Below are positions 4,912-29,242 of a stretch of 64,000 nucleotides of DNA, piece after piece. The first letter of the stretch is position 1, and each line of letters starts with the position of its first letter. Source of the stretch: a bacterium. GTDB lineage: Bacteria; Zixibacteria; MSB-5A5; GN15; FEB-12. The DNA lies in the NCBI GenBank assembly GCA_043811375.1, contig JBDRNJ010000044.1, positions 4,575 through 68,574 of the forward strand, given 5' to 3'. Under the pieces are notes generated by a model. The model made no database searches and was not told the DNA's origin. It worked only from the letters and a program-made list of their open reading frames with translations. The position numbers and the translations under genes were made by a program.

Positions 4912-5136
4912 TCTAACTAAGAATAATATCGGCACTAACGAAGAACAATTCATAAATCGCCATTTGCCGGAACTGAGTTGGTTTCAGGTTTGGCTCCAGT
5001 ACAGTCAGCCGGCATACCGCCCCGGGGCCTTAGGTATCGGCCAACGGTGCCGATAACCTATTATGGTGTTAAATCAAGAGATTGGCAGCAATAGTGTCAA
5101 CCGAAAACAGTTAGTCCACCAAGCGCGGGAGTAGTC

Positions 5137-6102: not shown

Positions 6103-6258
6103 GTCTATCGACAGCAACGGAGTTCTTACCGGGACAACGGCCAGCTGAACAAGACTATCATCAAATAACCAGTGGTCGTCTTGCTTTATGAGCGGTCAGG
6201 AATCCTTTCCTGATCGCACCACGTGTAGCCGTCAGCTTATCGATCCCTTATGGGCCGA

Positions 6259-7515: not shown

Positions 7516-7580
7516 TATAGCTGTGCGTAATAAGTGTCGGAGCAACACCAGCAGTTCCCGTACTGTTGGTTTCAGCAGCA

Positions 7581-8297
7581 TTAGTCGGTTATCTCAGGGC
7601 GAGATTCATCGCCGGCTACCCGACCATCTTCGAGGGTTACCAGCCGTCGAGCGCGTTCCATGATCTTAGTGTCGTGGGTAGAAAAGAGATAGGTGGTGCC
7701 GTGACTCCGATTCAGGTTGCGCATCATCTCAATCAGTTCGATACCGGTTTTGGAATCGAGGTTGGCGGTAGGCTCATCGGCCAGCACCAGGGTCGGGCGG
7801 GAAACCATCGCCCGCGCCACCGCCACCCGCTGCTGCTGCCCGCCGGAGAGTTTCGGGGGCAATCGATGGGCAAATCCTTCCAGCCCCAACTCCGTGAGAA
7901 TCCCCGCCACCCGGGTGTGTCTCTCTTTTTTGGACACGCCTTGCAGCAGCATGATGTACTCGATATTTTCCTGCACCGTTAGCACCGGGATCAGGTTGTA
8001 AGCCTGAAAAATGAACCCGATGTTGTCCCGCCGAAAGTCGGAAAGCTCTTTCCCGCTCATCTCTGACAGAAGTTTATTATTGAGCCGGACTTCACCCTCA
8101 CTGGTTGTGTCGAGACCGGAGATGATATTGAGGAAAGTAGTTTTCCCCGACCCGGAAGGTCCGACTATCGCGGTGAATTCGCCCTTTTGAATCGTCAGGT
8201 CGATACCCCGGAGAGCCCTGACCGGTACACCGTGGTCGGAGTATTCCTTGGTCACGCTTTTGGCAACGATTATATTTTCACCAGTATTGTTATTCAT
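7581..8297 (-). CDS. ABC transporter ATP-binding protein (LolD/MacB type)
   Basis: Walker [10 protein letters not shown], signature LSGGQQQRV and Walker B LVLADEPT. Confidence 0.9.
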
Positions 8298-8307
8298 TTT
8301 CGTTTCC

Positions 8308-9534
8308 TCAAAAGCTGCGCCTCATTGCTTTGACCGGGTTCATCCGGGCTGCATACAGGGCTGGATACAGACCGATCAGGGTGGTTATGACAAAAACCCA
8401 GAGGGGGAAATAGATGTATTGTTCAAACTGCATGACCGGGTAGAGCAATTCCCGAAAAGTCATACCCGCGTATTCGATGCCGGTATAATCGATACCTATC
8501 TGAGTAAAGATGTAGGTTACGATAAAACCGAGAACAACGCCCAGTACGATACTGACCACGCTCAGTGAGGCGGCTTCAAAAAGGATCAGGCGGGCAAGAA
8601 GCATGGGCCGGGTGCCGACGGCGCGCATGACACCGAACTCAAACATCCGTTCGTGCAGCGACATAAAGAGGGTGTTGACAATTCCCACCGCTACGACGAC
8701 AAAAAGAATCAGTCCGACTATCCAGGTAGAGAAGCTTGACAGTTCAAAAGCCGCCTCGAGTTCCGGCAGCAACTCTGTCCATCCTGACGCTTCGTTGTCT
8801 CCTGTTGAATATGAGTCCCAGAAGGGGAGACTTTTGGTTCGACCGTATTCCGTGTCAGTGAATATGATCGCGATTTCGTGGGCTGCTCCCTCAAGGTTGA
8901 GCATATCGCGTGCTTTGTCCAGCCTGACAAAAGCCATCGCTTTGTCCATCTCGCTGACATTGAAGTGATAGATGCCCGAAATACGAAACATCTCCTGCGC
9001 CAGATCACCAGTGTGTGCTTCCGCCGCCGTCAGGACCACGCGATCACCCAACTGAACTTCCAGCAACTCAGCTAATTTGCTGCCTATGAGAATATCACGC
9101 TCATCATCGCCGTCAAAATAGGCACCCTCGATAAGAGCTTCGTCAACCTGTGACAGGTGCCTCTCTGTAGCCGGCTCGATACCAACCATAGATACGGCAC
9201 TCAAATTTGAAGGAGAGTTGATCATGGCGAAGTTCAGAGTCCGGAGTGTGAATCGGTTGACGATAGTCTCCTTCTCCAGTCGAGCCGTAATCTCGTCAAG
9301 ATGCGCTATTGTTTTCTCGACCTCGAAAGTTTCACTGAACCCTTCACGGTGAATTTGTCCCTCCCCTAAAAACGATGCCGTCGCCGAGCGGATCATATTT
9401 CGCTCCATACCGATTATGAGAGCATCGACGTAGATCAGCGCCGCCAATCCGATACCGATAGCGGTCCCTGCAATGAAAGTTCGCCGCTTGTTGCGGAAGA
9501 GGTTTCGCCAGGCAAGTTTCAGGTAGAGCAGCAT
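8308..9534 (-). CDS. ABC transporter permease, FtsX/MacB-LolCE type
   Basis: 408 aa. One N-terminal TM helix, a large periplasmic domain and a C-terminal FtsX-like 3-TM bundle, ending ...ARMNPVKAMR. Confidence 0.85.
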   Translation of the reverse strand: MLLYLKLAWRNLFRNKRRTFIAGTAIGIGLAALIYVDALIIGMERNMIRSATASFLGEGQIHREGFSETFEVEKTIAHLDEITARLEKETIVNRFTLRTLNFAMINSPSNLSAVSMVGIEPATERHLSQVDEALIEGAYFDGDDERDILIGSKLAELLEVQLGDRVVLTAAEAHTGDLAQEMFRISGIYHFNVSEMDKAMAFVRLDKARDMLNLEGAAHEIAIIFTDTEYGRTKSLPFWDSYSTGDNEASGWTELLPELEAAFELSSFSTWIVGLILFVVVAVGIVNTLFMSLHERMFEFGVMRAVGTRPMLLARLILFEAASLSVVSIVLGVVLGFIVTYIFTQIGIDYTGIEYAGMTFRELLYPVMQFEQYIYFPLWVFVITTLIGLYPALYAARMNPVKAMRRSF

Positions 9535-9546
9535 CGCTTTCGTCTC

Positions 9547-10764
9547 CTAATGCATTCTCATCGCCCGTGCCGGCGCGACCCGCGCCGCTTTGGTTGCCGG
9601 GAAAATAGCAACAAACATAGCTGAAATAACAACGCACAGGGCCGGGATATAGAAACTGCGAGCATTAATCTCGGTGTACATTTTGCGGAATTCGACACCG
9701 CCGTACATAAACGGTTTGGGCATGGCCACACCTTGAATCGAAAGTCCATAGTTGATGGCGTAACTCAAACCGACAGCAAGGATAATACTGATGATCGCCA
9801 TAACGAACACTTCCATCAGCACCAGCCCAAAAATCTGCCCCGGTCCGGTGCCGACGGCCCGCAGAACACCATACTCCCGCGTTCGCTCAAGGACCGTCAT
9901 CAGGACTGTGTTCAATACGCCCACCGCAACCACCAGGATGATTATGCCCAGCATTATCCATCCACCCTGCTGATCGGCCTTCATTGCCTGGTAGAACTGT
10001 TTGGCGAACTCCTGCCAGGGGGCAACAGCCAGATCAGGATCGGCAATAACCATTTTTATATCATCTACGAGGTAAGAGATGATATCCAGGTCTTCGCCGA
10101 CGATAGAGATTTCGTGTATTCGTCCCTCTAACACCAAAAGTTCCTGGGCGTCGGCAAGATGCAGGTAAAAAGAGCTTTGATCGGTCATCTTGTTCCCGCT
10201 GGAAACAAGACCAACGATGGTATACAAGTCGTTGGCAATCGAACCGTCCGCACCCTGCGAAACGATAACAGCCTCATCGCCCACATCGGTCTTGAGTATC
10301 TTCGCCAGACCTTCGCCTATCAGCGCTTCATGCGCCGGTTCATCCGAAAACATACGGCCCCGGGCGATCTTTTTATCAAATTGAGTGGCGGTCTGCTCCA
10401 GTTGAGGTTCGATTCCGATAATCCTGGCGCCGGAGCTCTTTTCTCCTACCGAGATCAATCCGGCGGAATAAAGACGCGGCGTCCAGGATTCGACTCCGGC
10501 TACGTCTGCGATGAGCTTGCCTGCCGTCTCGTATTGATCGATTGTCTTGTAAAGCGCCGGATGATCGAGATATCCCCGCTGGTGGATCTGGATATGACCC
10601 ATTTGATTGCGGGTGAACATGTCGATGATGTTGTTGTAGGTGCCGTCTGACCAGGCGATTGATAACGAGGCCAGGGTAAAACCGATTAGCATGGTTAGCA
10701 CGGTCAACAGGGTCCGCCGTTTCTGACGGAAGACGTTGCGAAAGGCTATCTTGACCAGAAGCAT
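9547..10764 (-). CDS. ABC transporter permease, FtsX/MacB-LolCE type
   Basis: 405 aa, paralogous architecture to 8308-9534. C-terminal ...AARVAPARAMR. Confidence 0.85.
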   Translation of the reverse strand: MLLVKIAFRNVFRQKRRTLLTVLTMLIGFTLASLSIAWSDGTYNNIIDMFTRNQMGHIQIHQRGYLDHPALYKTIDQYETAGKLIADVAGVESWTPRLYSAGLISVGEKSSGARIIGIEPQLEQTATQFDKKIARGRMFSDEPAHEALIGEGLAKILKTDVGDEAVIVSQGADGSIANDLYTIVGLVSSGNKMTDQSSFYLHLADAQELLVLEGRIHEISIVGEDLDIISYLVDDIKMVIADPDLAVAPWQEFAKQFYQAMKADQQGGWIMLGIIILVVAVGVLNTVLMTVLERTREYGVLRAVGTGPGQIFGLVLMEVFVMAIISIILAVGLSYAINYGLSIQGVAMPKPFMYGGVEFRKMYTEINARSFYIPALCVVISAMFVAIFPATKAARVAPARAMRMH

Positions 10765-10776
10765 CGCGGATGCTCC

Positions 10777-11553
10777 TTATTCCGACGAACGGAGATTCCT
10801 CAAAGAGAAGATACCATCATCAACTTTGCGGTCGAAGTCGAGCTGCAAATAGCGGATGACAGTCTTGTGCCCCTCTTTGGCCTGGGGAACCATTTCCATT
10901 TCTGCCGGTAAGGTACGTTTGCCGAATGATCTTATGTTCTTGTACCGCATGACACGCATCAGCTTGCCTTTTTCATCGTAGTACTTCTGCCAGACAGGAA
11001 GGTGATCGCTCCTGCGGGCCGCTATCACAATGTTGCCCCAGACAATCGGCAGGTCTTCACGCGGAATGCAGTTGACATAGATCAGGTCATTATCAGCGCT
11101 GTCAACAGTAATCAATTCGTAGGAATAATCCTCGAAAAGGGAAAACTCCTTGACCAGATCGTCATTGGTGAAATCCGAGCCCATCCACGAGCTCATCATC
11201 ATCGACGGCGGAATCTTGATCACTTTGTTGGTCTTGGGCAGGTAGTTCCACATCTCGTTGTCGATACGCAGCGTAGCCACGCCGTTTTCCTTCTGAGGTG
11301 CGGTGATGCGAAGGAAGGTCCTGTCCAGGCCTTCCGTCCAGCATTTCATAGCCAGAGTCCGTTGCCAGCGAGGTGTGACGATTTCCATCTCAATCTCAGA
11401 ATAACTGGAAGAACTGCGATAGAGCTGATCAATGTCCCTGATTATCTGTTTGACATCGTTGATTGTCTCGTCAGTCTGAGTACCTGCCGTCGGCAAGATC
11501 AGGAATACTGTCAGGAAAACGGTAATGCTGCCGATCGATCGTCTCATCAGCAT
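10777..11553 (-). CDS. LolA-like outer-membrane lipoprotein-sorting protein
   Basis: Start chosen at MLMRRSIGS... (AAGAGGA RBS upstream). Signal peptide present. LolA_like pattern ...MWNYLPKTNKVIKIPPSMMMSSWMGSDFTNDDL.... First gene of the ABC cluster. Confidence 0.7.
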   Translation of the reverse strand: MLMRRSIGSITVFLTVFLILPTAGTQTDETINDVKQIIRDIDQLYRSSSSYSEIEMEIVTPRWQRTLAMKCWTEGLDRTFLRITAPQKENGVATLRIDNEMWNYLPKTNKVIKIPPSMMMSSWMGSDFTNDDLVKEFSLFEDYSYELITVDSADNDLIYVNCIPREDLPIVWGNIVIAARRSDHLPVWQKYYDEKGKLMRVMRYKNIRSFGKRTLPAEMEMVPQAKEGHKTVIRYLQLDFDRKVDDGIFSLRNLRSSE

Positions 11554-11581
11554 CGTCCTCTTATCTTCACTTACCCCTACT

Positions 11582-11712
11582 GGGCTTGTTGATAAACATA
11601 ACAAACGTCATAGCGAGGAGCGAAGCGACGTGGCTATCTCGTTGACATTCAATATCCGAGATTGCCACGCTGTCGCTCGCAATGACGAGAACAGGACTTT
11701 TTCAACAAGCCC
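11582..11712. repeat. about 130-bp nested imperfect palindrome (repeat module D)
   Basis: Outer arms GGGCTTGTTGA (11582-11592) / TCAACAAGCCC (11702-11712). Inner arms CGTCATAGCGAG...GTGGCTATCTCG / CGAGATTGCCAC...CTCGCAATGACG. The left inner arm recurs at 34661-34680. Confidence 0.8.
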
Positions 11713-11811
11713 TACTCACTGGGCTCAACGATAATTTATCAACTTAGATTGCACAAGTTTATTTACGACTGAAGGAACGAGTGATTGGAAGAGAATGATT
11801 GCAGTCGGCCC

Positions 11812-13539
11812 CTACCGAATCTCAAACCTGATACCGGCCGTCTCAAACCGGGAGCGGACACTGATCGTATCCGGGTAGCTGGCCGATGTCTCCGCCAGGT
11901 GAAAGGGAGATATTGAGCCAACTCCCCGGGCGCCGTCCAGGTCGGAGTCGACAAATCCGGACAGCAGATACTTGCCCGACGGGACATCAATTGTAAACGC
12001 CCGGTCGGTCACGGACAGATCAAACATCTGGCTCGATCCCACTTTCTTGAAAGACAACACCGCCGGACTGTCCTGCTGCCCCTCGATAGCAATCACCACT
12101 TCCCCGGAGATCGACCCCAGAGTGGAACTGTTCAGGGTGGAGAAAGAGTGCTGTTTGAGACTGTCACCGAGCATATTGCCGGCCGCATCGGCGATCTCAA
12201 ACTCGGCCACCGTCAGTGTGTATGACGTGCCCTCATTCAAATCGGACGGTAGCAGCAGCAGGTGGAAAGGATCGCGCCACATAAGAGTCAGGGGAATGTT
12301 TTGTTCTTTGTCGTCCTGAAGCACAAAAGTTTCGCCGGTTAATCCGGTGGTGTCCAGCGGTTCGGAAAAAACCAGTTGCAGTTCGACATCCTCGACGAAT
12401 CGGGGCGCCGGGTCGGGGTAAAAGCGTTCGATAACGGGAGGCTTCTGGTCGTCTGCGACTGCGGATTCAATCCCGGCGTAGGTCATGGCCGACTGGGTCA
12501 GATCGAACATCAGTTCCAGGTCGTAAACACCCTCAGACAGGCTGTCAAAATGCGCGTGTAGAACCGTTGTTTTCTCGAGGTCACACTCCGGAAACGATCC
12601 GGCCACACTAACCTGACCGCTGTCCGTTTGACTTGACAGCAACAGGTTTGACGGATTCTGACACAGGATATCCAGTTCAATCGACCGCGACATACGGATT
12701 TTCAACAGTCCCCCGGCTGTGAAAGCGGCGGAGATTATTTCGGTAGTGACTGTATCCTGAGTCGTCAGCATCAGTTCCAGGTTGTCTACCGGCACTTTAC
12801 CACCGGGAACAATCGGACGGTCGGGCAGGGCAAACGATTCCCGCGATGGATTAAAACGTTCGTCCCGGTTTTTGTCCTCGAATGCTACCAGGCGGTACTC
12901 GCGAGACGGAAGATACTGAAACGTGAAGCCCCCTTCCTGGTTGGACCTGGTCAGGTAGTCGGGGTACAGTGAATCCAGGATGGTTGTCGTGTCGTCAAAG
13001 ACGGTCGCCCGATATAGTCCCACCATCAGCCCGGCTCGCGGTTTGTCGGCCGCGAATACCCGGCCGGAGACAACACCGGAGTCGATAAAAGCTCCGGTCG
13101 AAAAGGCGATCATTACCGAACTGTCGAGTTTGTTGCCGCGCAGATCGACAATGTCGGCGCTCAGCGACACGATGTAGGTCTCATCGGTGCGGAAAGTGTC
13201 CGGCAGGACGATCTCCAGCCGATCCGATTTCCATTTGAGCCTGGGCTCCTGAAGGGGACGGGGCGATATAAACACAGCCTTGCCGGTGCGTGGACTGACA
13301 ACCCGCTCGGAAAAAAAGAGCTCGATGACTCGATCCGGGGTTACCTCGGTCGCTTTGTCGGCCGGGACCGATCCCATCAGAAGCGGACGCAACTTGTCGG
13401 CTTCGCCTCCGGGTGGGGGAGCCACCTCGGCGCAGGAGATCAAACCGGCGATCAAAGTTGACAAGATTAGAAATAGATATCGGATCGGGTTGCCCCTGTG
13501 CAGCCGTTTAAGGACCGAGTTTTTGCTTGATCTGTTCAT
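11812..13539 (-). CDS. bacterial Ig-like (SbsA/Big_5-type) domain lipoprotein
   Basis: 575 aa with a lipobox-like LISCAE. Ig-like domain starts of the type ...ATEVTPDRVIELFFSERV... and ...FVEDVELQLVFSEPLD.... Function unknown. Confidence 0.55.
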   Translation of the reverse strand: MNRSSKNSVLKRLHRGNPIRYLFLILSTLIAGLISCAEVAPPPGGEADKLRPLLMGSVPADKATEVTPDRVIELFFSERVVSPRTGKAVFISPRPLQEPRLKWKSDRLEIVLPDTFRTDETYIVSLSADIVDLRGNKLDSSVMIAFSTGAFIDSGVVSGRVFAADKPRAGLMVGLYRATVFDDTTTILDSLYPDYLTRSNQEGGFTFQYLPSREYRLVAFEDKNRDERFNPSRESFALPDRPIVPGGKVPVDNLELMLTTQDTVTTEIISAAFTAGGLLKIRMSRSIELDILCQNPSNLLLSSQTDSGQVSVAGSFPECDLEKTTVLHAHFDSLSEGVYDLELMFDLTQSAMTYAGIESAVADDQKPPVIERFYPDPAPRFVEDVELQLVFSEPLDTTGLTGETFVLQDDKEQNIPLTLMWRDPFHLLLLPSDLNEGTSYTLTVAEFEIADAAGNMLGDSLKQHSFSTLNSSTLGSISGEVVIAIEGQQDSPAVLSFKKVGSSQMFDLSVTDRAFTIDVPSGKYLLSGFVDSDLDGARGVGSISPFHLAETSASYPDTISVRSRFETAGIRFEIR

Positions 13540-15211
13540 TATCCGGGTCTAAGTCCAACGCCTTTTGCCACCAGGTGCGAGCCTTATGTGATTCACCCAC
13601 TGCCTGATATACATCTCCCAGATGATCGAAAATTACCGGGTCACTGTCAAGTGTTACCGCTTTTTCAAGGTGGATAAGCGCTTCGGTATAATCACCCAGG
13701 CGATAGTGGACCCACCCGTAGCTGTCAAGATAGGCAGCGTTGTCCGGTTCATGAGACACGGCGCGGGCGATCAACTCGCGAGCATAATTCAGCCGCTCAC
13801 CCCGATCGGCCAGCATGTATCCCAGGTAGTTGAGCGCCTCATCGTAGTCCGGGTGACCCGCGACAAGTTCCTCAAATGTCGCTAACGCTTCGTCAATCCG
13901 ACCGTAGCGCTCGTGGGCGGCGCCCAGCGCCAACAGCAGTCGCGACCGTCCCGTGTCGTCCCGCATATGACTGAGACCGGTCTGGTAGGTCTCTATCTCT
14001 TTATCATGTTGACCCAGTTCCCGGTATACATAGCCCAGGTCAAGCCACGATTCGTACAAGGAGTCGGACAACTGGGTCAGCAATGTGAATTGCTGAAGGG
14101 CTCGATCGAAATTATCACGCCGAACTGCAATGCGGCCCAGATAGAAGTGATTGGCCGGGTGAGGCCGGCCGTTTTCAGCCAGTTGACTGAATATCGAGTC
14201 GGACTGCTGAAGAGAATCCAGCCAGTAGTACAGCATACCCAGCCGCCGGGAGGCACCCTCGTCCAGAGGCGTCAATTCCACCTCGCGCCAGGCGTGATAA
14301 AGAGCCTTATCCAATGAGTCCAGACTTGTATATAGTCCCCGTAAGCACCGATGGGCAACCACATTAGATGGCGCAACATCAACCGCAGCATTAAATACTG
14401 TCAGTGCCGACTCGGGTTGCTGGTTGGCTTCGTACAGATTACCCAAACCGATGAAAGCGGCAATATTGTTCTGACCGCTGTTGATATCGATCGACTTTTG
14501 ATATGACTGCCTGGCCTCTTCGTATCTGCCAGCCTGGGCCTGCAACATACCCAGTTCTCCACTCAGACGGTACTGGTGAGGCCGCAGCCGGGTCAGGTTT
14601 TCGTAGGCCCATATCAGGGAATCGAGGTTGTTCAGGCGGCGGTAGGTGCCGGCCAGGTAGGCGTACGCCCGCGATTGTGTTGAGTCGAGCGCCACCAACT
14701 TCAGGTAACAAATCCGGGCCGAGTCCTCAGCCCCGGTAGCAGAGTATGTAATGGCCCGCAACTGCCAGACGGCCGTATCCTCGGGTATGATGGGTGCCAG
14801 TACCGACAGTCCCCTTTGGTATTCCTGTAGCTTGTGAAGGTGGCCGGCCAGGGAAAACCGAATCTCGTACGAACCGGGGCAATATCGCAGTGCCCTGGAG
14901 TAGTAAGTTGCCGCCTGATAGGGGTTGCCCATCTGCTCATAGAGTACGGCCTGGACATAGTAGGCAAAAGCTTCCGGGCGTATCTGCTCGTCGGCAGGTT
15001 CCGAAGCCCTCTCGGTCGTGGTCTCGATGACGGACATCCTGGTCGGGGTCTCGGCTGCTGTCTGTTTGTGCAGGGTGGAGGAGCAACCGGTTACCAGCAC
15101 CGGCAGCAACATTATACCAACAATTTTCAGCAACTCTCGGATCATGTTCTTTTGTACAAATTCTGGAGAGTTTCGCATCAACGAAAGTGCCGCCGGCCGG
15201 GGAGATTTCAA
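13508..15211 (-). CDS. TPR-repeat lipoprotein
   Basis: Many TPR-like repeats (A..Y...AL...P....A...LG..Y). The more likely start is MIRELLKIVGIMLLPVLVTGCSS at 15145 (lipobox). Overlaps tyrS by 4 nt if it starts at 15211. Confidence 0.75.
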   Translation of the reverse strand: MKSPRPAALSLMRNSPEFVQKNMIRELLKIVGIMLLPVLVTGCSSTLHKQTAAETPTRMSVIETTTERASEPADEQIRPEAFAYYVQAVLYEQMGNPYQAATYYSRALRYCPGSYEIRFSLAGHLHKLQEYQRGLSVLAPIIPEDTAVWQLRAITYSATGAEDSARICYLKLVALDSTQSRAYAYLAGTYRRLNNLDSLIWAYENLTRLRPHQYRLSGELGMLQAQAGRYEEARQSYQKSIDINSGQNNIAAFIGLGNLYEANQQPESALTVFNAAVDVAPSNVVAHRCLRGLYTSLDSLDKALYHAWREVELTPLDEGASRRLGMLYYWLDSLQQSDSIFSQLAENGRPHPANHFYLGRIAVRRDNFDRALQQFTLLTQLSDSLYESWLDLGYVYRELGQHDKEIETYQTGLSHMRDDTGRSRLLLALGAAHERYGRIDEALATFEELVAGHPDYDEALNYLGYMLADRGERLNYARELIARAVSHEPDNAAYLDSYGWVHYRLGDYTEALIHLEKAVTLDSDPVIFDHLGDVYQAVGESHKARTWWQKALDLDPDNEQIKQKLGP

Positions 15212-19996: not shown

Positions 19997-20851
19997 CTAT
20001 TGTTTGATTGCTCCGGCTGTGATTCCTGCAACAATTTGCTTCTGCATCAGGATAAACAGTATCAGCACCGGGATAACGGCTATTGCAGAGCCGGCCATCA
20101 GGTGTTGCCAGTCAATCGCCTGGTGACCCTGGTACATTGCCAGACCGACCGGCAAAGTGCGCACTTCCTCGCTGGATGTCAGGATATAGGGAAATAGAAA
20201 AGAATTCCAATTGGTGAAAAACACCTGAATAGCCAGCACCGCCAGGGCCGGACGGCATAACGGCATGACGATCCTGAACAGTATTCGCAGTTCCCCGGCG
20301 CCATCCAGGCGCGCCGCTTCTTCCATCGCCGGGGGGACAGATTCAAGGTACTGTTTGACCAGGAATATCCCTATCGGGTTGACCAGCCAGGGCAGAATAA
20401 GAGCCCAATAACTGTCGTACAAACCGCTTTTAACCATCAGGATGTACAACGGGATAATCAGCACGTGGGCCGGTATCATCAGCACTGCGATAACACTCAG
20501 GAAAAGAACCTTGTGGTACAGGTACCGGTAGCGAGCCAGCGCGTAGGCGACCATAAAGCAGAACAAGATGTTTCCCACCGTAACAACGATTCCGACAAAA
20601 AGCGAGTTAAACAGGTAGCGCCCCATACTGTGGAGGGAGAACAGATCGCTGTAGTTAGCCAGGGTAAACTCTGTGCTGACAATCTGTCCCATGCTGATAT
20701 CGGCGCTGGGATCCATCAGAGACACTCGAAACATCCATGCCAGCGGGAAAACCATTACCGCCAACAGGCCGACCAACAGGATGAACCTGAGAGACCCCAG
20801 GAGGCGATAGCCTACCACAGCGGCTGCCTCCTTTTCAAGAGTAAAAACCAC
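19997..20851 (-). CDS. carbohydrate ABC transporter permease (MalG-like)
   Basis: 6-TM binding-protein-dependent permease with EAA loop ...EEAARLDGAGELRILFRIVMP. Confidence 0.85.
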   Translation of the reverse strand: MVFTLEKEAAAVVGYRLLGSLRFILLVGLLAVMVFPLAWMFRVSLMDPSADISMGQIVSTEFTLANYSDLFSLHSMGRYLFNSLFVGIVVTVGNILFCFMVAYALARYRYLYHKVLFLSVIAVLMIPAHVLIIPLYILMVKSGLYDSYWALILPWLVNPIGIFLVKQYLESVPPAMEEAARLDGAGELRILFRIVMPLCRPALAVLAIQVFFTNWNSFLFPYILTSSEEVRTLPVGLAMYQGHQAIDWQHLMAGSAIAVIPVLILFILMQKQIVAGITAGAIKQ

Positions 20852-21681
20852 AGTATCGAGATTATGGCGATAATGACAAACAGGATGTAGGCTGCCGCCG
20901 ATGCATAACCGCTTTCAAAACCGGTAGTCAAACCGGTTTCGTATACAAAATAGACGGCGGTGGCAGTGTCGAACTTGCCTTTGGTCATTACGAAGATCTC
21001 TACAAAAACCTGAAAAGACTTGATGGAATTGATAACCAGTATGAACAAAGCTATCGGCCTTAACATCGGCAGAGTAATGGAAAACAACCGTCGCAGTGCT
21101 GAGGCTCCATGTATTTCTGCTGCCTCGTACAACTCCGGGGGGATCGCTTTCAGCCCGGCCAGGAAAATCAACATGTAGTAGCCGACCGACATCCATACGT
21201 CCATGGCCATGATCGAATAAAGAGCGCTGCCGCTGTCATATAAAAATCCGTTGACCGGCGGGGTCACGCCGACCAGGCGGGCCAGCAGTGCCACGTAGCC
21301 GCCTCGCTGGTACAGGTTGGTGAAAATCAGGGCAATTACGACCATCGAAGTCAGCGACGGCAGGAAATAGGCGGCGCGGAAAAGCCCCCGTCCCTTAAAC
21401 CGCCGGTTGACCAGCAGAGCCATGCCCAGCGCCACGACTGTCGTGACCGGAATCGTCCCCAGTACAAATATGAAGGTGTTCTTAAGAGCACCGATGAAGT
21501 CCCGGTCGCTCAACAGAGCCTGGAAATTCGACCAGCCCACCCACTGGTAATCCTTGACCAGCAGGCGGAAATCTGTAAATCCCATCAGCAGTGATACGAT
21601 CAGGGGCAGCAGCCAGAATGCCGCCAGAGTAGCCAGCCAGGGGATGGTTAAAGCCAGAACCGTTAATCGCGTGGCTCTCAT
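20812..21681 (-). CDS. carbohydrate ABC transporter permease (MalF-like)
   Basis: EAA loop ...YEAAEIHGASALRRLFSITLP. Confidence 0.85.
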   Translation of the reverse strand: MRATRLTVLALTIPWLATLAAFWLLPLIVSLLMGFTDFRLLVKDYQWVGWSNFQALLSDRDFIGALKNTFIFVLGTIPVTTVVALGMALLVNRRFKGRGLFRAAYFLPSLTSMVVIALIFTNLYQRGGYVALLARLVGVTPPVNGFLYDSGSALYSIMAMDVWMSVGYYMLIFLAGLKAIPPELYEAAEIHGASALRRLFSITLPMLRPIALFILVINSIKSFQVFVEIFVMTKGKFDTATAVYFVYETGLTTGFESGYASAAAYILFVIIAIISILWFLLLKRRQPLW

Positions 21682-22892
21682 TTTTCCATAAGCTCAGTGA
21701 TTTTCCGGCTCGCCTCCAATAGCGAGTGGGCTATCGGTCCCGATTCGAACAAAGCCTTTTCGACCGCCTCCTCAATGGCATCCTCCATATAAGCCCAGTT
21801 GGGGTCAACCGGCGGATGTTCTGACAACGTGATTTGTTTGATGAACGTCTGCAAATGTATATTGGAGGTGAAATAGGAATCCGCCTGCGCTTTGATGCTT
21901 GATGGGTTGGCTGAGTGATTGGCGCGGCAGAAACGAAGCTGGTTCTCCGGCGATGTGATGAAACCGATCAGCTTCAGAGCGGCTTCTTTGTGTTCGGAAG
22001 CTTCGTTTATCGCCAGGAATTCGCCTCCCTGAAACGAACGTCCCGGAAAACCACGTCCCGGGAAAAGTGTCGTGACCAGATTAATCTGACTGTGTTCGGC
22101 TTCAATCCGTTTCAAGAGCCAGTCGCCGGATATGATAAAACCGATGCGGCCCTGAAGGAAGGCATCTTCTATACCGCGCTGATTGGCCACATAGCCACAT
22201 GAGTCATGTAGTGCTTTATAGAGGGCCAGCGAGTGGATACCTTTCTGGGATGTAAGGAGACAGAAGCGACCGTCTTCAGAGAACAGATCAGCCCCGTAGG
22301 ACCAGAAGAAAGGGAGGAACTTCTTGTACAAACGGTGCTTTTCGGCAGTATTGGAACCCCAGCCGTAGATTTCCGGACCCAGTCGATTGATTTTCATTGC
22401 TGCATACTTGAGATCATCCAGCGTTATGGGTACCCAGGAAGTGTCCATTCCAGCTTGCGTTAGAAGATCACGGTTGCCAAATAGAACCCTGGTCCCCAGA
22501 ATCCACGGTCTGGCGTACACTTTCCCCTGGTAGGCAGCCATACCCCAACCCTGAAATTCGCTGCTGTCGGAGGCAATGTCGGATGATATATCGGCCAGGT
22601 GACCGGTGGCCGCAAACTGAGCGATCCAGTCGGAACCGAGCTCAAGTATGTCCGGGCCGGTGCCGGACGCCAGGGCAATGACTATCTTCTCGTGTCCGTT
22701 GGCCCAGGTAAGATCAGTCAGTTTGACCTTGATATCGGGATGGGCTTGCTCAAATTCCGTCACCATAGACGCTATCACCGGCTTGATATCGGGATCTGTC
22801 CAGAATTGCCACCAGTGAATTGTTGTTGCCGCTCGGGTTGTCGGCGACAGGATGACAAGTATCGTTGCCGCCAGGATCACTAACGCTCTCAT
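21678..22892 (-). CDS. ABC transporter extracellular solute-binding protein (sugar family)
   Basis: Start trimmed to MRALVILAATILVILS (signal peptide); the longer ORF to 23099 overlaps the divergent operon. Family-1 SBP-like sequence. 4-nt overlap with the next permease. Confidence 0.8.
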   Translation of the reverse strand: MRALVILAATILVILSPTTRAATTIHWWQFWTDPDIKPVIASMVTEFEQAHPDIKVKLTDLTWANGHEKIVIALASGTGPDILELGSDWIAQFAATGHLADISSDIASDSSEFQGWGMAAYQGKVYARPWILGTRVLFGNRDLLTQAGMDTSWVPITLDDLKYAAMKINRLGPEIYGWGSNTAEKHRLYKKFLPFFWSYGADLFSEDGRFCLLTSQKGIHSLALYKALHDSCGYVANQRGIEDAFLQGRIGFIISGDWLLKRIEAEHSQINLVTTLFPGRGFPGRSFQGGEFLAINEASEHKEAALKLIGFITSPENQLRFCRANHSANPSSIKAQADSYFTSNIHLQTFIKQITLSEHPPVDPNWAYMEDAIEEAVEKALFESGPIAHSLLEASRKITELMEK

Positions 22893-23005
22893 AACACCTC
22901 TTCTGTCCAAAGTCGTTTCTTTGATTATAAGCAGAATTGCTCCGGTTGGGGTCAAGAAAAATCTTTTAGTTGATTGTGACGACATATCGATGTTTTTCGA
23001 CTGGT

Positions 23006-23830
23006 ATGCTGTGGCATTTGATGGCTGTGGCCGCTCCCGTTGATCCGGGCTGGCTTGATCTCGACCGGTTACCGACGCTGATAGCGGCCCTGATTTCAAT
23101 TTTAATCATCCTCTACGTAACTTACTACCGGTCACGTCGGGGCGATTTCAAAATGCGAGAGATTCACGGTTTGAAGGCGGTCGAGGAAGCTATCGGTCGG
23201 GCTACGGAGATGGCCCGTCCGGTTCTGTATACTCCCGGATGGGGTGGTGATATTCAGCGCCCAACTACCATTGCCTCCATGAACTTTCTCAGCCACGTGG
23301 CCGACCAGACCGCCGGGTATGATTGCCGCCTGGTTTATCCCACTCACGACCCGGTCATCATGACGGTAGCTCAAGAAGTCGTACGCGAAAGCTATCTGAA
23401 AGCCGGTTACCCGGATCGCTTCCGACCGGATGACATCGCCTATGTCACATCGTCGCAATTCGGATACGCCGCCGCCGTCGACGGCATGATCACCCGCTTG
23501 CAGCCGGCCTCGATTTTCCTGCTGGGGACATTTGAAGCCGAATCGCTGATTCTGGCTGAAACCGGAAACTCCATTGGTGCCATTCAGATCGCCGGTACCG
23601 ACTCCACGATTCAATTGGCCTTTTTTATTGTTGCCTGCGATTACACGCTCATCGGCGAGGAACTCTTTGCCGCCTCGGGGTACCTGTCGCAGGATCAGTC
23701 CATTCTGGCTTCAGTGCGCGCCCAGGACATCTTTAAGGTATTTATCGCGTTATATATCTTGCTGGCCGTGGCCTGGTGCACGGTTGAAGTGATCAGTGGC
23801 CGGGCTGTCAGTGACTGGTGGAGGTTCTGA
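23006..23830 (+). CDS. uncharacterised bitopic membrane protein (TM - about 190-aa globular domain - TM), operon gene 1
   Basis: ORF 22970-23830; the start is uncertain (ATG at 23006 or 23021). TM helices LPTLIAALISILIILYVTYY and IFKVFIALYILLAVAW. No motif I can assign. Confidence 0.6.
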   Translation: MLWHLMAVAAPVDPGWLDLDRLPTLIAALISILIILYVTYYRSRRGDFKMREIHGLKAVEEAIGRATEMARPVLYTPGWGGDIQRPTTIASMNFLSHVADQTAGYDCRLVYPTHDPVIMTVAQEVVRESYLKAGYPDRFRPDDIAYVTSSQFGYAAAVDGMITRLQPASIFLLGTFEAESLILAETGNSIGAIQIAGTDSTIQLAFFIVACDYTLIGEELFAASGYLSQDQSILASVRAQDIFKVFIALYILLAVAWCTVEVISGRAVSDWWRF

Positions 23831-24450
23831 TGGACCGCAAGGTTGCTTTGGGTGTCTGCTTTGTATTCGGAGTAATTATGTTTACTCAGTATTTCTCGCA
23901 GCACCCGACGACGCGGTTCGTCAATCAGACGGTCCTTCACTACTGGCAGATTATCTTTGCCTTCGCACTGTTGCTGGGCGTGGTCAGCGTTATCAGGAAC
24001 AATGTGAAGCAACTGCGCCGGGGACAGGACCGCCTTAATCGGGTGGTCATACTGGCCGGGTTGACGGCGATGCCGCTGCTGGCTCTGATTTGGGGTATCC
24101 GGGCCGATACGCCGTTCATGTGGATGTTTGAGAATGTCCAGGCGCCGATGCAGTCCACCGTCTTTGCCCTGCTGGCCTTTTTTGTAGCCTCGGCCTCTTT
24201 TCGTGGTTTCCGTGCTCGCTCGTTTCCGGCTACGGTGCTGCTGCTGTCGGCTCTGATCATCTTACTCAGCCGCAGCGCAGTGGGCTCCGCCGTGTACTCA
24301 GGCCTGCCTGATCTGGCCGACTGGATTCGCAACTATCCCTCAATGTCGGCCCGGCGGGCCATTCTGATCGGTATCGGCCTCGGTTCGGTGACCACCTCGT
24401 TACGGGTAATTCTGGGCATTGAACGCACCTGGCTGGGAGGGAAAAGATGA
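23830..24450 (+). CDS. uncharacterised about 6-TM membrane protein, operon gene 2
   Basis: ATG at 23830 overlaps the gene-1 stop (TGATG), with GGTGGAGG 5-6 nt upstream. About six hydrophobic helices. Confidence 0.6.
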   Translation: MDRKVALGVCFVFGVIMFTQYFSQHPTTRFVNQTVLHYWQIIFAFALLLGVVSVIRNNVKQLRRGQDRLNRVVILAGLTAMPLLALIWGIRADTPFMWMFENVQAPMQSTVFALLAFFVASASFRGFRARSFPATVLLLSALIILLSRSAVGSAVYSGLPDLADWIRNYPSMSARRAILIGIGLGSVTTSLRVILGIERTWLGGKR

Positions 24451-25256
24451 AACGACCGGCAACTCGCCACTGGATCTTTTTGGGACTGTTTGTCTGTATT
24501 GCCGTCGTGATGATGCTTGATATCCAACTGGAGATGCCGGTATCCGACCAGACTCGACGAGTTTACAACTTCATCGACTCCCTGCCGCCCGGTTCGGCCC
24601 TGATGATTTCTTTCGATCATGAAGCCTCATCGTTGCCGGAGATACACCCCATTGGACAGGCGTTGCTGCGCCATGCCTTTGCCCGGGGCCATCGGTTGAT
24701 CGGCGTAGCGCTGCTGGCCGAAGGTACCGTTATCGGCTACCGCTTAATGCAAAACACCGCCGCCGAGTATGATCGCCGGTATGGCCGCGACTTCGTCTAC
24801 CTGGGCTTCAAGCCACAGTATATTGCCGCTATTCTGGCTATGGGAGAGTCCATCCCGGAGACCTTCCCTCAGGATTACTGCGGACGACCGTACCACGAAT
24901 ATGAAATTCTCAAAGATATCGCCAACTACGATGACCTGGCTGCGGTTATCTCCATCACCGATGGTTCACTCACCACGCACTGGATGGAGTATGGCGGCAG
25001 TCGCTATGGAGTGCGCGTCCTGTCTGGCATGACGGCCGCCATGATGACTACTTTCGACCCCTATGTCGCTTCCGGCCAGATGTACGGCCTGGTTGGCGGC
25101 CTGCGCGGCGCGGCTGAATATGAACAACTGATTCAACGCAGCGGGGGAGGGGCGCGCGGTATGCTGGCCCAGACCACTGCCCATCTGTACGTGATCGCCC
25201 TGGTGCTGGTGGGTAACTTTATTTATTTCAGAAACCGGCGCCGGAAGTCAACATGA
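24447..25256 (+). CDS. uncharacterised bitopic membrane protein (TM - about 200-aa globular domain - TM), operon gene 3
   Basis: ATGA overlap with gene 2, GGGAGGG RBS. Same architecture as gene 1 with patchy colinear similarity to it. Confidence 0.6.
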   Translation: MKRPATRHWIFLGLFVCIAVVMMLDIQLEMPVSDQTRRVYNFIDSLPPGSALMISFDHEASSLPEIHPIGQALLRHAFARGHRLIGVALLAEGTVIGYRLMQNTAAEYDRRYGRDFVYLGFKPQYIAAILAMGESIPETFPQDYCGRPYHEYEILKDIANYDDLAAVISITDGSLTTHWMEYGGSRYGVRVLSGMTAAMMTTFDPYVASGQMYGLVGGLRGAAEYEQLIQRSGGGARGMLAQTTAHLYVIALVLVGNFIYFRNRRRKST

Positions 25257-25870
25257 GTGATCCTTCAACTATAGTGGCCGGGCTGTTGACGATTGCCATC
25301 CTGTCATTCCTGTATCGGGACAACCCGGTCTACAAGTTGGCCGAGTCATTGCTGATTGGTGTCTCAATCGGTTACACGCTGGTGGTAGTCTGGACCGGTA
25401 CCATCATGGACCTGCTGTTGACACCACTGGTGCAGGACAGCCGTCCGGCTCTTGTTGTACCGTTGTTGCTGGGCCTGCTGATGTTCAGTCGCTTCCTGCG
25501 TCAGACGGCTTTCCTGTCACGGATACCGATCGCCGTCATGATCGGTTCCGGCGCCGGGGTGGCGATCCCGGTCATGCTCGAAGCCCGCACACTGAAACAG
25601 ATGTCGGCCACGGTAGCGCCATTGATTTCTGAGTCGGGCCTGCCGGACCTGTCGGCCATAGTCGTCGTGGTGGGTGTGTTAACCACTCTATCGTACTTCT
25701 ATTTCAGCCGCGAACACCGGGGGGTACTGGGCGTATCGGCCGGAATCGGCACTTACTTTCTGATGATATTCTTTGGCGCCACCTTTGGGTACACCGTGAT
25801 GTCGCGCATGTCCACCTTCATCGGCCGGATGGAATTCCTGCTGACCGATTTCCTGCGACTGACCGGCTGA
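25253..25870 (+). CDS. uncharacterised about 6-TM membrane protein, operon gene 4
   Basis: ATGA overlap with gene 3. About six hydrophobic helices. Confidence 0.6.
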   Translation: MSDPSTIVAGLLTIAILSFLYRDNPVYKLAESLLIGVSIGYTLVVVWTGTIMDLLLTPLVQDSRPALVVPLLLGLLMFSRFLRQTAFLSRIPIAVMIGSGAGVAIPVMLEARTLKQMSATVAPLISESGLPDLSAIVVVVGVLTTLSYFYFSREHRGVLGVSAGIGTYFLMIFFGATFGYTVMSRMSTFIGRMEFLLTDFLRLTG

Positions 25871-25897
25871 AGGCATCAGGGAGATATGTAACCGGTG

Positions 25898-26023
25898 ATG
25901 TGCCCTCGCTGTAAATCGGCCATGCACGAACAGAAACGATCGTTTCACAAACAACGAAAATGGGTTTGTCCCAAATGCGGGCGCGTGCGTTTTCAGGAGG
26001 TGAAACCGACACGTAAAAAGTGA
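25898..26023 (+). CDS. 41-aa zinc-ribbon micro-protein (CPRC...CPKC)
   Basis: Not in the ORF track because it is under 60 aa. Translation: MCPRCKSAMHEQKRSFHKQRKWVCPKCGRVRFQEVKPTRKK. Two CxxC pairs and a basic tail, 28 nt downstream of operon gene 4. The RBS is weak (AGGGAG 15 nt upstream). Confidence 0.45.
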   Translation: MCPRCKSAMHEQKRSFHKQRKWVCPKCGRVRFQEVKPTRKK

Positions 26024-26373: not shown

Positions 26374-27063
26374 TCAGGACCGGATCAACCGACAGAACAG
26401 ACTCGACTTGTCAACTTCGCTGATAGTCACCTGCGCCGGAAGGTCATCCGTCAGCGACTGAAATTGTTGCCCTGACACCGTTGAGGCCGTGAAACCATCT
26501 CGGCAGACAATGACGCCTTCACCGGTGTTCTCCTCGTCAATGATGCCCACCAGCCCGGCTTCTGACTGCAACCGGAACCAGTTCAGTCGCGGCTGCCAGA
26601 ACCTGGGCGAGTAGCTTGAAAACAGTACCATTCCGCCGGGTTTGGTGACACGCAGGCTCTGATGCAACAATTCTTTCTTGCTGACACCGAAAACGGCTAT
26701 CCCGTTCTGGATACAGACGACACAGTCGAAAACGGCGTCGGCAAAACCGGGTCGCGTGGCATCCATGGCCAGCAGATGGATATGTGGCATATCCGCCAGT
26801 GCCTGCCGGGCCAGTTGCAGGCTGGTCAGAGAGGTGTCGATACCGACCACCTCCCCGGCTTTTTGGTTTAGTTGCTTCAGGACGCGACCATAGCCGCAGC
26901 CCAGTTCCAGTACGGTATCATCGCTGTCAACATACTGTAGAACGTAATCGATCTCAGCCTGAAGGTACTGCTGAACTCGGGGTGGTGCGATTTCATAACA
27001 TTGGCGAAGTTTATCGGCAGCCAGCTTGTCATCGTAGTATCCGTTCATGTGCGCGACCCGCAA
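26374..27063 (-). CDS. class I SAM-dependent methyltransferase
   Basis: Motif I VLELGCGYG, then the acidic residue VVGIDTS and a Rossmann-fold pattern. Substrate unknown. Confidence 0.8.
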   Translation of the reverse strand: MRVAHMNGYYDDKLAADKLRQCYEIAPPRVQQYLQAEIDYVLQYVDSDDTVLELGCGYGRVLKQLNQKAGEVVGIDTSLTSLQLARQALADMPHIHLLAMDATRPGFADAVFDCVVCIQNGIAVFGVSKKELLHQSLRVTKPGGMVLFSSYSPRFWQPRLNWFRLQSEAGLVGIIDEENTGEGVIVCRDGFTASTVSGQQFQSLTDDLPAQVTISEVDKSSLFCRLIRS

Positions 27064-27139: not shown

Positions 27140-28960
27140 TCAGGAACATCCACAAGGCTCAGGGCCGCCCGCAAAGAGGTATTGAACCAGGTAGGAAATA
27201 TCCCCGACGTTAACATCACCACCGCAGTCGACATCAGCCGCTTCCAGCGGTGCCGACGGCAGGCCGCCGTTAAACAAATACTCCACCAGGTGAGTTATGT
27301 CACCCACCGTGACATCTGAATCACCATCACAGTCACCACGAGGAAAACAAATGGTAAGAGCGCTGTTATTTACTCGCGGTTCATAAGTAGCATACATACC
27401 GCCAAACTGAGGAGCGTAACTGTCGTAGCCTTCTACCCGAATATGGGTAGTGTCGTCGTATCCCGCCGTACCGGGAAGAGTGAAAAACAGGTTGGCAACG
27501 GCTCCTTCTCCAGCCGGAAGATGCGGCGACGTCCCGGAATAGGAACTGACCAGCTTAATTGTCTGCTTTTTGCCGGCCGGGTCATAGTGAATGTATGTTT
27601 GCACTTCAAAGTAATCCGCTCGACAACCCACGGTTGAGAAGGAATCCAGCGTGACATCCAGATCGCCCGAATACTCTATGGGGATTTTGATGGTGCTGAT
27701 GGGCACGTAGTTATGCACATATACCGGCATCATAACAGCAGTGCTGCGACTACCTTCGGTGGAGACAGGTCTTAGAGAATCGGCCAGCGCTTTGATGAAA
27801 TTGGGCTTTTGCCGGGAGCGAATATCACCACCGGCGTTGATTTCCAGCGTCACCGGAAACAGTCCGGGGTCCGAGAAAGTATGCATCGGCGATTGCTCGT
27901 ATGCCGAGTTACCATCCCCGAAATCCCAGGTCCAGGTGTCTACAACCAGACCCGATATGCCGGTGAAATTGACATCAAACGGCACCCAGCCGATTGTCGT
28001 GTCAGCCTCAAAAGCGACACCGCCCTGGTAGTTGACGTAGCTGGCGGCGTAACCGATCTTCGAGCAACCGTAGGGAATACGCATGTAGCCAGCCTCGCCC
28101 CAGCTGGAGCCCCATGAATTGCGCATAAACCAGACTCCGCTCGGTCCCTGACTGTCGTCCCAGCCAACGATCACCACACCATGATTGACGCTGCCGAACT
28201 CCGAACAACCGTTGAACACACCGCCTCCATAGGCTTGGAAAGAGCTATTGACATAGACCGCCACCGTAATCGGGCCGTAGTCCAGAACGGCCTGCTTGAT
28301 CTGCGCCGTGGAGGGAACACCGGATGAGGAACCGACATAAGCCCAGGACTCTATATGATAAGGATGCTCATAAGGGCAGCCGCAGGAACCGTTTGTAGCC
28401 GTATACGGGAATTCAGCCTCCATAACGGCTCCGGAACTGTCACAGGGGTCAGTCTCAGCCAGGTGGTAGTCATGCGCCCACCAGCCACCACCACAGTCCC
28501 AGCCATGATGGTTGCAGCTAACCAGCCATTGTTCCGAGAGGTCCTCGGTCAAGCGGTCGCGAATCTTGATATTGCATTCAAGAGCTCCCACTGTGGCAAA
28601 CGCCCAGCAACTGCCGCAGCCGCCCTGGTTTCTGACCGGAGGCATATCAGTCGAATCTCGCCAGTCGAAATATGACGGCAAGTCCAGTCTTGGTGCTATG
28701 GGATCAAAGCGCGCCGTTGCCTGCCAGTTCTCCGGCTCCTTCAGACCGCACAGTTCATCCAGGGAATAAGATGTGGCCGGGTTGGCGGAGACCGTGAAGG
28801 TCCAGCCATCCTCCTCGGCCTGTTGTTGCAGAGCGGAGATATCATCGGCGGTTAACTGCGCCATTGACGGGACGGCAATTAACAGCCCGACTATCAGGGT
28901 GATTCCCGGCACGAAGCCGAACAGATTTCGCCCGGAGTTCGTTGATGTCGTTCTTGCCAT
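27140..28960 (-). CDS. secreted papain-like (C1) cysteine peptidase with PKD and dockerin-like C-terminal modules
   Basis: Start trimmed to MARTTSTNSG... (GAGAGGA RBS, signal peptide). Catalytic QGGCGSCWAF, VNHGVVIVGWD and NSWGSSWGEAGY. PKD-like WDFGDGNS. Two dockerin-like repeats DCDGDSDVTVGDITHLVEYLF and DVDCGGDVNVGDISYLVQYLF. Confidence 0.85.
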   Translation of the reverse strand: MARTTSTNSGRNLFGFVPGITLIVGLLIAVPSMAQLTADDISALQQQAEEDGWTFTVSANPATSYSLDELCGLKEPENWQATARFDPIAPRLDLPSYFDWRDSTDMPPVRNQGGCGSCWAFATVGALECNIKIRDRLTEDLSEQWLVSCNHHGWDCGGGWWAHDYHLAETDPCDSSGAVMEAEFPYTATNGSCGCPYEHPYHIESWAYVGSSSGVPSTAQIKQAVLDYGPITVAVYVNSSFQAYGGGVFNGCSEFGSVNHGVVIVGWDDSQGPSGVWFMRNSWGSSWGEAGYMRIPYGCSKIGYAASYVNYQGGVAFEADTTIGWVPFDVNFTGISGLVVDTWTWDFGDGNSAYEQSPMHTFSDPGLFPVTLEINAGGDIRSRQKPNFIKALADSLRPVSTEGSRSTAVMMPVYVHNYVPISTIKIPIEYSGDLDVTLDSFSTVGCRADYFEVQTYIHYDPAGKKQTIKLVSSYSGTSPHLPAGEGAVANLFFTLPGTAGYDDTTHIRVEGYDSYAPQFGGMYATYEPRVNNSALTICFPRGDCDGDSDVTVGDITHLVEYLFNGGLPSAPLEAADVDCGGDVNVGDISYLVQYLFAGGPEPCGCS

Positions 28961-29242
28961 GGCAGATTCCTCTCGATAGTACAAGCGGCAGAAGCAAACG
29001 GCCGGGAAGCATATCATGCTGATGCAATTCCTGCTCCGCGGCCTGCGGGAACACGGATATGTCTTGACGCGGCTTCCGCCTCGTTTATCCTCTCTCTTTT
29101 TGAATATACTCTTTTGCCCGGTTTTGTCCACAAAAAACTTGGCACCGCCGGCGGGAATAACCGGGATGTTATCACAGGCGGGAGTTCTAAGGGAAAGAAT
29201 CGTTTGTTGCCCGACGACCGGTCATCACCGTAGATTCCGACT

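Follow-up and report, generated by a model that had tools for sequence, protein, structure and literature searches.

Several described inner-membrane systems share features with the subject of this report, a four-gene membrane-protein cassette (products P1-P4) encoded on the plus strand of a 64,000-nucleotide stretch of Zixibacteria DNA (contig JBDRNJ010000044.1), which was analysed as a whole and is referred to as the window. Type I ATP-binding cassette (ABC) importers, e.g. MalFGK2-MalE or the binding-protein/permease system next to the cassette, likewise have two subunits of about six transmembrane (TM) helices, a periplasmic alpha/beta domain and a conserved cytoplasmic loop with a possible coupling role; however, the cassette described here lacks an ABC ATPase and any match to the BPD_transp_1 or ABC2 membrane families, its predicted periplasmic domain is anchored by two TM helices, and its fourth subunit is a predicted cytoplasmic alpha/beta protein devoid of a Walker A motif. 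In the Rnf/Na+-NQR modules (RnfA/E/G, NqrD/E/C, NqrA), two six-TM subunits of about 200 amino acids (aa) similarly lie on either side of a bitopic one (about 260 aa) that has a periplasmic domain, and in other lineages the cassette is accompanied by a soluble partner (c2) whose barrel-sandwich domain is RnfC_N/NqrA_N-like, but there is no detectable homology, P2 and P4 are not recognisably paralogues, conserved cysteines and FMN-binding matches are lacking and P1 has no counterpart. Machines of the FtsEX/MacB and MreBCD types are also small inner-membrane complexes that join a cytoplasmic ATPase to periplasmic domains, and the ATPase of MreBCD has an actin fold; however, none of their subunits is homologous to P1-P4 and the Zixibacteria locus carries no such ATPase. 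The GlmL-type ATPases, one of which is encoded beside the cassette in other lineages, are not known to have a cytoskeletal or transport role. Pfam records DUF6754 (PF20539), the one family to which a cassette protein belongs, as a domain of unknown function only.

The four genes lie in the window as follows:
23006-23830, + strand: P1 (product 1), 274 aa, bitopic, Pfam DUF6754 (PF20539)
23830-24450, + strand: P2 (product 2), 206 aa, six TM helices, TGATG overlap with the P1 stop
24447-25256, + strand: P3 (product 3), 269 aa, bitopic, ATGA overlap with the P2 stop
25253-25870, + strand: P4 (product 4), 205 aa, about six TM helices, ATGA overlap with the P3 stop

Read directly from the sequence, the stop/start junctions are TGATG, ATGA and ATGA, with GGAGG placed 8 nt upstream of the P2 start and GGGAGGG upstream of the P3 start, all as the initial annotation had described, and translation of P1-P4 is coupled. 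Since 80 other genomes encode all four products at 49-81% identity, the open reading frames (ORFs) are genuine genes and did not arise by chance. Close relatives of P1 number at least 8000. When one genome per species was scanned, 275 genomes contained relatives, and the best 80 of these were taken for locus analysis. Almost all are Zixibacteria-type metagenome-assembled genomes, a few being labelled with other taxa or none, and they are called the Zixibacteria loci below. Identity to the window across this set is 65-78% for P1, 53-77% for P2, 49-76% for P3 and 63-81% for P4, and the order of a divergent binding-protein gene followed by P1-P2-P3-P4 is kept in every locus long enough to judge.

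The relatives found in an exhaustive P1 profile search fall into 2205 clusters at 50% identity. A further 87 loci (L081-L167) came from gene-context look-ups and from scanning metagenomes, and 85 of them (L081-L165) are used for the counts on diverse loci. The cassette was defined operationally as neighbouring homologues of P1-P4 that follow one another in this order on one strand, an arrangement found in the window. Homologues in L081-L165 share 30-58% identity and the same gene order: P2, P3 and P4 follow P1 in order for 60 of the 63 P1 genes with at least 2.6 kb of downstream sequence, and the three exceptions are extra P1 paralogues that adjoin a complete cassette. These loci contain 75 complete cassettes distributed over 58 loci, and 14 loci hold head-to-tail arrays of two or three complete cassettes (L100, L101, L105, L107, L118, L121, L125, L128, L134, L144, L146, L151, L152 and L160). 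One lineage (L082) encodes proteins that are named 'Planctomycetota bacterium' by NCBI. The initial annotation had proposed a single operon of four membrane proteins, and this was upheld by a survey of gene neighbourhoods in which P1-P4 co-occur in order far beyond this genome. The cassette genes are thus a co-inherited, coupled unit over large evolutionary distances. Because the order is kept across distant loci, including the Planctomycetota-labelled L082, the cassette appears from these comparisons to be an ancient, fixed, multi-phylum unit, of which the window holds the minimal form. The most likely reading, held at rather less than even confidence, is that P1-P4 form an obligate four-subunit complex that acts as a transporter-like translocator or as a transducer of conformational signals.

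Some of the tandem arrays show further regularities. A single GlmL-type ATPase and adaptor pair is found ahead of the first cassette in three of them (L105, L121 and L160), and several arrays end with a cassette whose P1 is short (about 298 aa) and Zixibacteria-like. Irregular loci were also seen. An orphan second DUF6754 gene of 937 aa lies beside a phage-type integrase (L084/L085, 8001-10814), two P4 genes with 75% identity stand in tandem (L083, 13348-14835), and the last 30 residues of a 113-aa ORF match the P4 C-terminus (L081, 7551-7892); this ORF is probably a remnant of another cassette. These oddities are read as signs of cassette turnover. A search of PLSDB found no plasmid-borne copies of the cassette in cultured bacteria.

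P1 matches DUF6754 along almost the whole model (positions 4-250 of 257; E 4.3e-96, 321.4 bits against a cutoff of 27) and is on this basis assigned as a full-length member of the family. It holds the family-wide motifs GRATEMG, AESL.LAE, AGT and QL.FF..CDY.LIGEE..AA, which vary little or not at all, both among 40 diverse representatives and among 112 sequences taken from the window and the diverse loci. The alignment of diverse representatives has invariant residues at E68, E179, E185, C211, D212, E218 and E219, and E177 is invariant among Zixibacteria sequences; the invariant positions sit in the soluble domain and not in the TM helices. Family-averaged hydropathy and lysine/arginine (K/R) bias place the N-terminus outside, followed by TM1, a cytoplasmic domain of about 200 aa and TM2, with a K/R cluster directly after TM1 that is strongly basic in every lineage. 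In the longer homologues TM1 comes after a signal peptide and an extracytoplasmic domain, and because of this and of the basic loop after TM1 the conserved domain is predicted to be cytoplasmic.

Most representatives of the P1 clusters are 330-1270 aa long with DUF6754 at the C-terminus, and in most P1 proteins from outside the Zixibacteria a signal peptide and 100-1000 aa of variable sequence come before the domain. Among 61 long members, PQQ_2/BamB-like beta-propellers were recognised in seven and fn3 in one, and the remainder include coiled coils and unassigned beta-rich repeats. The P1 of the window, by comparison, is the minimal form of DUF6754 and lacks the periplasmic N-terminal extension of other lineages. 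An AlphaFold2 (AF2) model of P1 built from 30 sequences (mean predicted local distance difference test score, pLDDT, of 68) shows a (beta-alpha)5 domain with a TM helix on each side; confidence is good in the N-terminal half and lowest in the segments with the invariant motifs (78-87, 176-188 and 197-216). Low confidence at these motifs is what one would see if P1 depends on its partner subunits to fold. A Foldseek search of the model against the PDB brought up only FtsY, RecA and KaiC, alpha/beta matches that are generic and weak (best E 0.02, TM-score about 0.25), the P1 profile found no chain among PDB sequences, and no Walker A motif (GxxxxGK[ST]) is present in P1. In the literature library searched, no paper was found that mentions DUF6754 or PF20539, and none that describes the four-gene cassette, the three partner families, the tandem arrays or an ATPase association of DUF6754.

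The conservation of P1 could also be taken to mean that the complex is a membrane-bound enzyme, in which the constellation of acidic residues and cysteine is catalytic on a lipid-linked or membrane-delivered substrate and P2-P4 supply an anchor and a channel. P1 is unusually conserved (70-80% identical inside the phylum and about 50% from one phylum to another), C211 and the acidic positions are invariant, and the (beta-alpha)5 fold is common among enzymes; however, no enzyme family was matched in Pfam, NCBIfam or the PDB and biosynthetic genes are not consistently adjacent. An enzymatic role is considered rather unlikely.

The other three proteins match no family in Pfam, NCBIfam or PADLOC and no PDB sequence. 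P2 has six TM helices with both termini inside, as judged by hydropathy and K/R bias, and an invariant basic cytoplasmic loop (LLAFF.ASAS.R.FRAR). The helix pattern of an AF2 model of P2 from 119 sequences (pLDDT 65, predicted TM-score, pTM, 0.42) agrees with hydropathy, and Foldseek found no match to it in the PDB below E 0.8; the models of P1 and P2 neither point to a particular fold nor suffice to exclude one. P3 has basic N- and C-termini and an N-terminus predicted to be inside, with TM1, a domain of about 210 aa and TM2, the last carrying the conserved residues Q242, H246 and N257; the domain is placed in the periplasm because both termini are basic. P4 has about six TM helices and the invariant motifs FLYKDNP, YFFFSKEH and FGA.FGYTVM.R, and its orientation is ambiguous by charge, with a slight bias opposite to that of P2 (7.0 vs 5.0 K/R). 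Neither P2 nor P4 alignments contain an invariant cysteine. Searches of P2-P4 from the window against Pfam (E up to 1) and NCBIfam returned nothing meaningful. When diverse members were scanned individually against Pfam, no common family emerged for 54 P2 or 47 P4 proteins (E up to 0.01) and none of 58 P3 proteins matched any family; profile searches of the PDB gave no match for P2 or P4 and nothing better than E 0.6 for P3. The initial annotation had placed none of the four products in a family: this stands with respect to characterised transporter, enzyme, secretion and signalling families, but not for P1, which belongs to DUF6754.

Hydropathy agrees with the layout first described for these proteins, i.e. 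P1 and P3 each consist of a TM helix, a domain of about 200 aa and a second TM helix, while P2 and P4 have about six TM helices each. On that layout, together with patchy colinear similarity between P1 and P3, the initial annotation had interpreted the operon as a duplicated module of one bitopic and one six-TM protein. Such similarity was absent in BLASTP and in local and global profile-profile alignment. That P1 and P3, or P2 and P4, are paralogues was rejected: BLASTP found no similarity in either pair, hhalign gave 0.4% and 5% respectively with Zixibacteria-only profiles, and deep profiles of 150-190 sequences per family that included distant lineages gave 6.5% and 2.7%. In the best alignment of P1 with P3, both local and global, nothing is paired beyond the N-terminal anchor of the former and the C-terminal anchor of the latter. 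A reversed-profile control was included in the duplication tests, and as a positive control the inverted-topology paralogues RsxA and RsxE of Escherichia coli were aligned at 98.8% from two single sequences. The resemblance is one of layout only. An ancient duplication beyond sequence recognition, possibly with inverted topology, would be compatible with any of the other readings. The repeated arrangement of a TM-flanked, alpha/beta-looking domain of about 200 aa followed by a six-TM protein of about 205 aa would suit it, as would the P1 and P3 domains, which are predicted to face opposite sides of the membrane (cytoplasm and periplasm respectively), and the clear N-in orientation of P2 against the slight opposite bias of P4. 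It is nevertheless improbable, because the aligned stretch is confined to a TM anchor and basic tail, the control pair was readily detected and no motif is common to both pairs.

Four partner genes recur beside the cassette in about 27 of the 85 non-Zixibacteria loci, as found by clustering of neighbouring ORFs, usually in the order c10-c9-c4-c2-P1. Examples of the partner block, to which about 24 other loci can be added, are:
L083, 3062-7978: partner block
L106, 3622-7571: partner block
L108, 1261-5052: partner block

The c4 product is a GlmL/MutL-type ASKHA ATPase of about 614 aa (PF13941, E 2e-129) that falls below the cutoffs of the NCBIfam GlmL models, and the literature search found no paper that mentions PF13941 and nothing relevant on GlmL and membranes. 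The c2 gene usually ends a few bases before the P1 start and encodes a soluble protein of about 375 aa that combines a KOW motif with a barrel-sandwich hybrid domain, matched by Biotin_lipoyl in 12, RnfC_N in 10 and NQRA_N in 5 of 25 members. The c9 and c10 products are small membrane proteins, one with a weak match to the bacterial PH-domain (bPH) and one of 123 aa. A role for c2 as a biotinyl or lipoyl carrier was rejected, as the position of the modified lysine (MKM/DKA) is occupied by a nearly invariant asparagine; the comparison, an hhalign alignment to the E. coli BCCP domain, is indicative only. Genes for c2, c4, c9 and c10 are absent from the window and from all 80 Zixibacteria loci.

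The presence of c2 bears on whether the cassette could be a redox-driven ion pump of the Rnf/Na+-NQR type, with P2 and P4 as RnfA/E (NqrE/D), P3 as RnfG (NqrC) and c2 as NqrA/RnfC. Subunit sizes and order are similar, and the RnfC_N and NQRA_N matches of c2 fit as well. However, the barrel-sandwich domain of c2 is generic, since Biotin_lipoyl is its top match; hhalign of the four cassette profiles against E. coli RsxA, B, C, D, G and E gave at most 0.5% (0.1% for P3 against RsxG); there is no Pfam Rnf-Nqr or FMN-binding match; and invariant cysteines are missing from P2 and P4. The Rnf/Na+-NQR alternative is essentially excluded. Other known systems were rejected too. P1-P4 have no ABC_tran, BPD_transp_1 or ABC2_membrane match and P1 has no GxxxxGK[ST], as regards ABC transporters; no cassette protein matches a MotA/ExbB/TolQ-type stator subunit or its bitopic ExbD/TolR/MotB partner in Pfam; and PADLOC gave no anti-phage defence match for P1-P4, c2 or c4, and a chance-level zinc-ribbon match (E 0.0095) for a micro-protein encoded downstream of P4.

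In the preferred model of an obligate four-subunit complex, the unrelated six-helix proteins P2 and P4 would form a membrane core of 12 helices, to which P3 would add a membrane-anchored alpha/beta domain on the periplasmic face. P1 would contribute the most conserved part, a cytoplasmic (beta-alpha)5-type domain with invariant Glu/Asp residues and one Cys, and this domain would be the coupling or energising module, possibly docking on the invariant basic loop of P2. The complex would then carry a substrate across the inner membrane or relay a conformational signal from one side to the other, a transporter-like translocator being the most likely of these readings. In lineages that encode c4 and c2 directly upstream, P1 may dock the GlmL-type ASKHA ATPase and the barrel-sandwich/KOW adaptor, and elsewhere the variable periplasmic N-terminus of P1 (beta-propeller, fn3 or coiled coil) may confer specificity; the P1 of Zixibacteria would have lost this domain or never had it. 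Moderate confidence of the single-chain AF2 models (68 for P1 and 65 for P2) despite strong conservation is consistent with obligate assembly. A broader and slightly more tentative proposal is that the cassette represents a previously unrecognised class of four-subunit machine, distinct from ABC, P-type, Rnf/Nqr and Exb/Tol systems, that occurs in at least two phyla, is often in tandem and has interchangeable periplasmic heads on P1, with a GlmL-type actin-fold ATPase and its barrel-sandwich/KOW adaptor as the energising partner where these are encoded alongside.

Several points weigh against a translocator or transducer. No ligand or nucleotide motif speaks for transport, P1 lacks Walker A, its fold matches to FtsY, RecA and KaiC are weak, and a known fold could be hidden by the poor quality of the P2 model. 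Both the window and all 80 Zixibacteria loci lack the ATPase and adaptor, which leaves energisation of the system in the window unaccounted for. Furthermore, a scaffold or sensor would suit variable protein-interaction domains in the periplasm no less well than a transporter would. The cassette might be an envelope scaffold or mechanotransducer comparable to FtsEX, Tol-Pal or MreBCD, which handles no substrate and passes work or a signal between the cytoplasmic module (the P1 domain, with the ASKHA ATPase where present) and periplasmic interaction domains. The hypervariable N-terminus of P1, built from interaction modules such as BamB-like beta-propellers, fn3 and coiled coils, favours such a scaffold, as do the actin fold of the recurrent ATPase partner and the envelope genes near some loci: the window encodes an OmpA-like protein and PBP1A near the cassette, separate ExbB/ExbD genes lie several kb from the cassette in 5-6 loci, and peptidoglycan-recycling enzymes surround it in L166. 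However, these neighbours vary between lineages, no homology to FtsX, MreC/D or TolQ/R was seen in Pfam scans, and the Zixibacteria P1 has no periplasmic domain, yet is the most strongly conserved version. A scaffold is thought unlikely, if less so than an enzyme. An envelope-gene neighbourhood was also tried as a general theme of the cassette and rejected, as it is not conserved outside single lineages.

Upstream of P1 the window contains a divergent importer, and a micro-ORF follows P4:
22893-23005: divergent intergenic region from the likely solute-binding protein gene start to the P1 start, 113 bp
19997-22892, - strand: ATPase-less sugar-type ABC importer, divergent from the cassette, by Pfam matches
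21678-22892, - strand: solute-binding protein gene, Pfam SBP_bac_1
20812-21681, - strand: ABC permease gene, Pfam BPD_transp_1
19997-20851, - strand: ABC permease gene, Pfam BPD_transp_1
25898-26023, + strand: zinc-ribbon micro-protein, 41 aa, CxxC...CxxC with a basic tail

These genes match the divergent sugar ABC importer reported at the outset, namely one SBP_bac_1 and two BPD_transp_1 proteins with no ATPase gene. The longest ORF for the binding protein (21678-23099, - strand) begins at a TTG at 23099 and overlaps the P1 start. The sequence and the ORF list place the beginning of the signal peptide at the Met of the ATG at 22892 on the - strand, which is the likely true start of the gene, and it is because the signal peptide begins there that the divergent spacer is taken as 113 bp. 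A sigma-70 consensus scan of 22893-23005 found nothing, that consensus being uninformative for this phylum, and promoter/terminator consensus scans found nothing relevant. Meanwhile, no Rfam family (gathering threshold) and no tRNA gene were found in the whole 64-kb window (1-64000).

The divergent binding protein is present in 79 of the 80 Zixibacteria loci, at identities down to 49%, and the permease and OmpA-like genes are also syntenic there. The same pair of divergent importer and cassette occurs in L166, a deeper relative of the Zixibacteria type and the closest relative whose P1 has an N-terminal extension. In that locus (1940-15155) importer and cassette lie amid NlpC/P60, S66 LD-carboxypeptidase, MR_MLE epimerase, Amidase_3 and S11 DD-carboxypeptidase genes. 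This persistence, combined with the importer having no ATPase gene of its own at the locus, is what would speak for the cassette as an accessory or energising partner of the importer, the two forming one uptake system in Zixibacteria. However, none of the 85 diverse loci has this importer beside the cassette, P1 lacks ABC ATPase motifs, and sugar ABC importers are well known to work with an ATPase whose gene lies at another site. A joint uptake system has only a slim chance of being correct.

The 41-codon ORF downstream of P4, which had been missed by the gene track and was proposed from its cysteines and basic tail, is conserved in 53 Zixibacteria loci, with 449, 262 and 1077 differences at codon positions 1, 2 and 3 respectively. 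Because of this conservation and third-position bias it is judged a real gene under purifying selection. Its consensus is CP[RK]CK..M.E.KR[ST]FHK[QK]RKW[VI]CPKCG.VRFQ; searches of Pfam and NCBIfam gave zinc-ribbon matches that were all sub-threshold, and at that level the CxxC...W.CxxC pattern resembles the N-terminal zinc ribbons of IS1/IS1595- and TnpB-type proteins. It was found in none of the 85 non-Zixibacteria loci. From their distribution, the micro-protein and the ABC importer are companions of the cassette in the Zixibacteria-type lineage only, outside its conserved core.

Further along, a gene for a 229-aa class I S-adenosylmethionine (SAM) methyltransferase is convergent to the cassette (26374-27063, - strand). 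A SAM methyltransferase that is also 229 aa long is encoded directly upstream of the cassette in L084 (1772-2461), but none was found beside it in the other 80 Zixibacteria loci, and the adjacency in the window and L084 is probably coincidence. The window also encodes a papain-family (C1) cysteine peptidase (27140-29131, - strand; listed ORF 663 aa), which is large and secreted and combines a PKD domain with a type I dockerin at the C-terminus.

Pfam has no entry for three of the four cassette families and lists the fourth as no more than a DUF. Strict conservation of the cassette across a whole candidate phylum (50-80% identity), more than 2000 clusters of P1 relatives at 50% identity and tandem amplification in many genomes are features of a kind that usually marks a core membrane function. 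That function, once defined, would remove many 'hypothetical membrane protein' labels in uncultured Zixibacteria, Planctomycetota-labelled and unassigned lineages, and could reveal a new way to couple a cytoplasmic module to the periplasm. Furthermore, GlmL-type ATPases are poorly understood, and their link to the cassette would place them in a second context, at the membrane.

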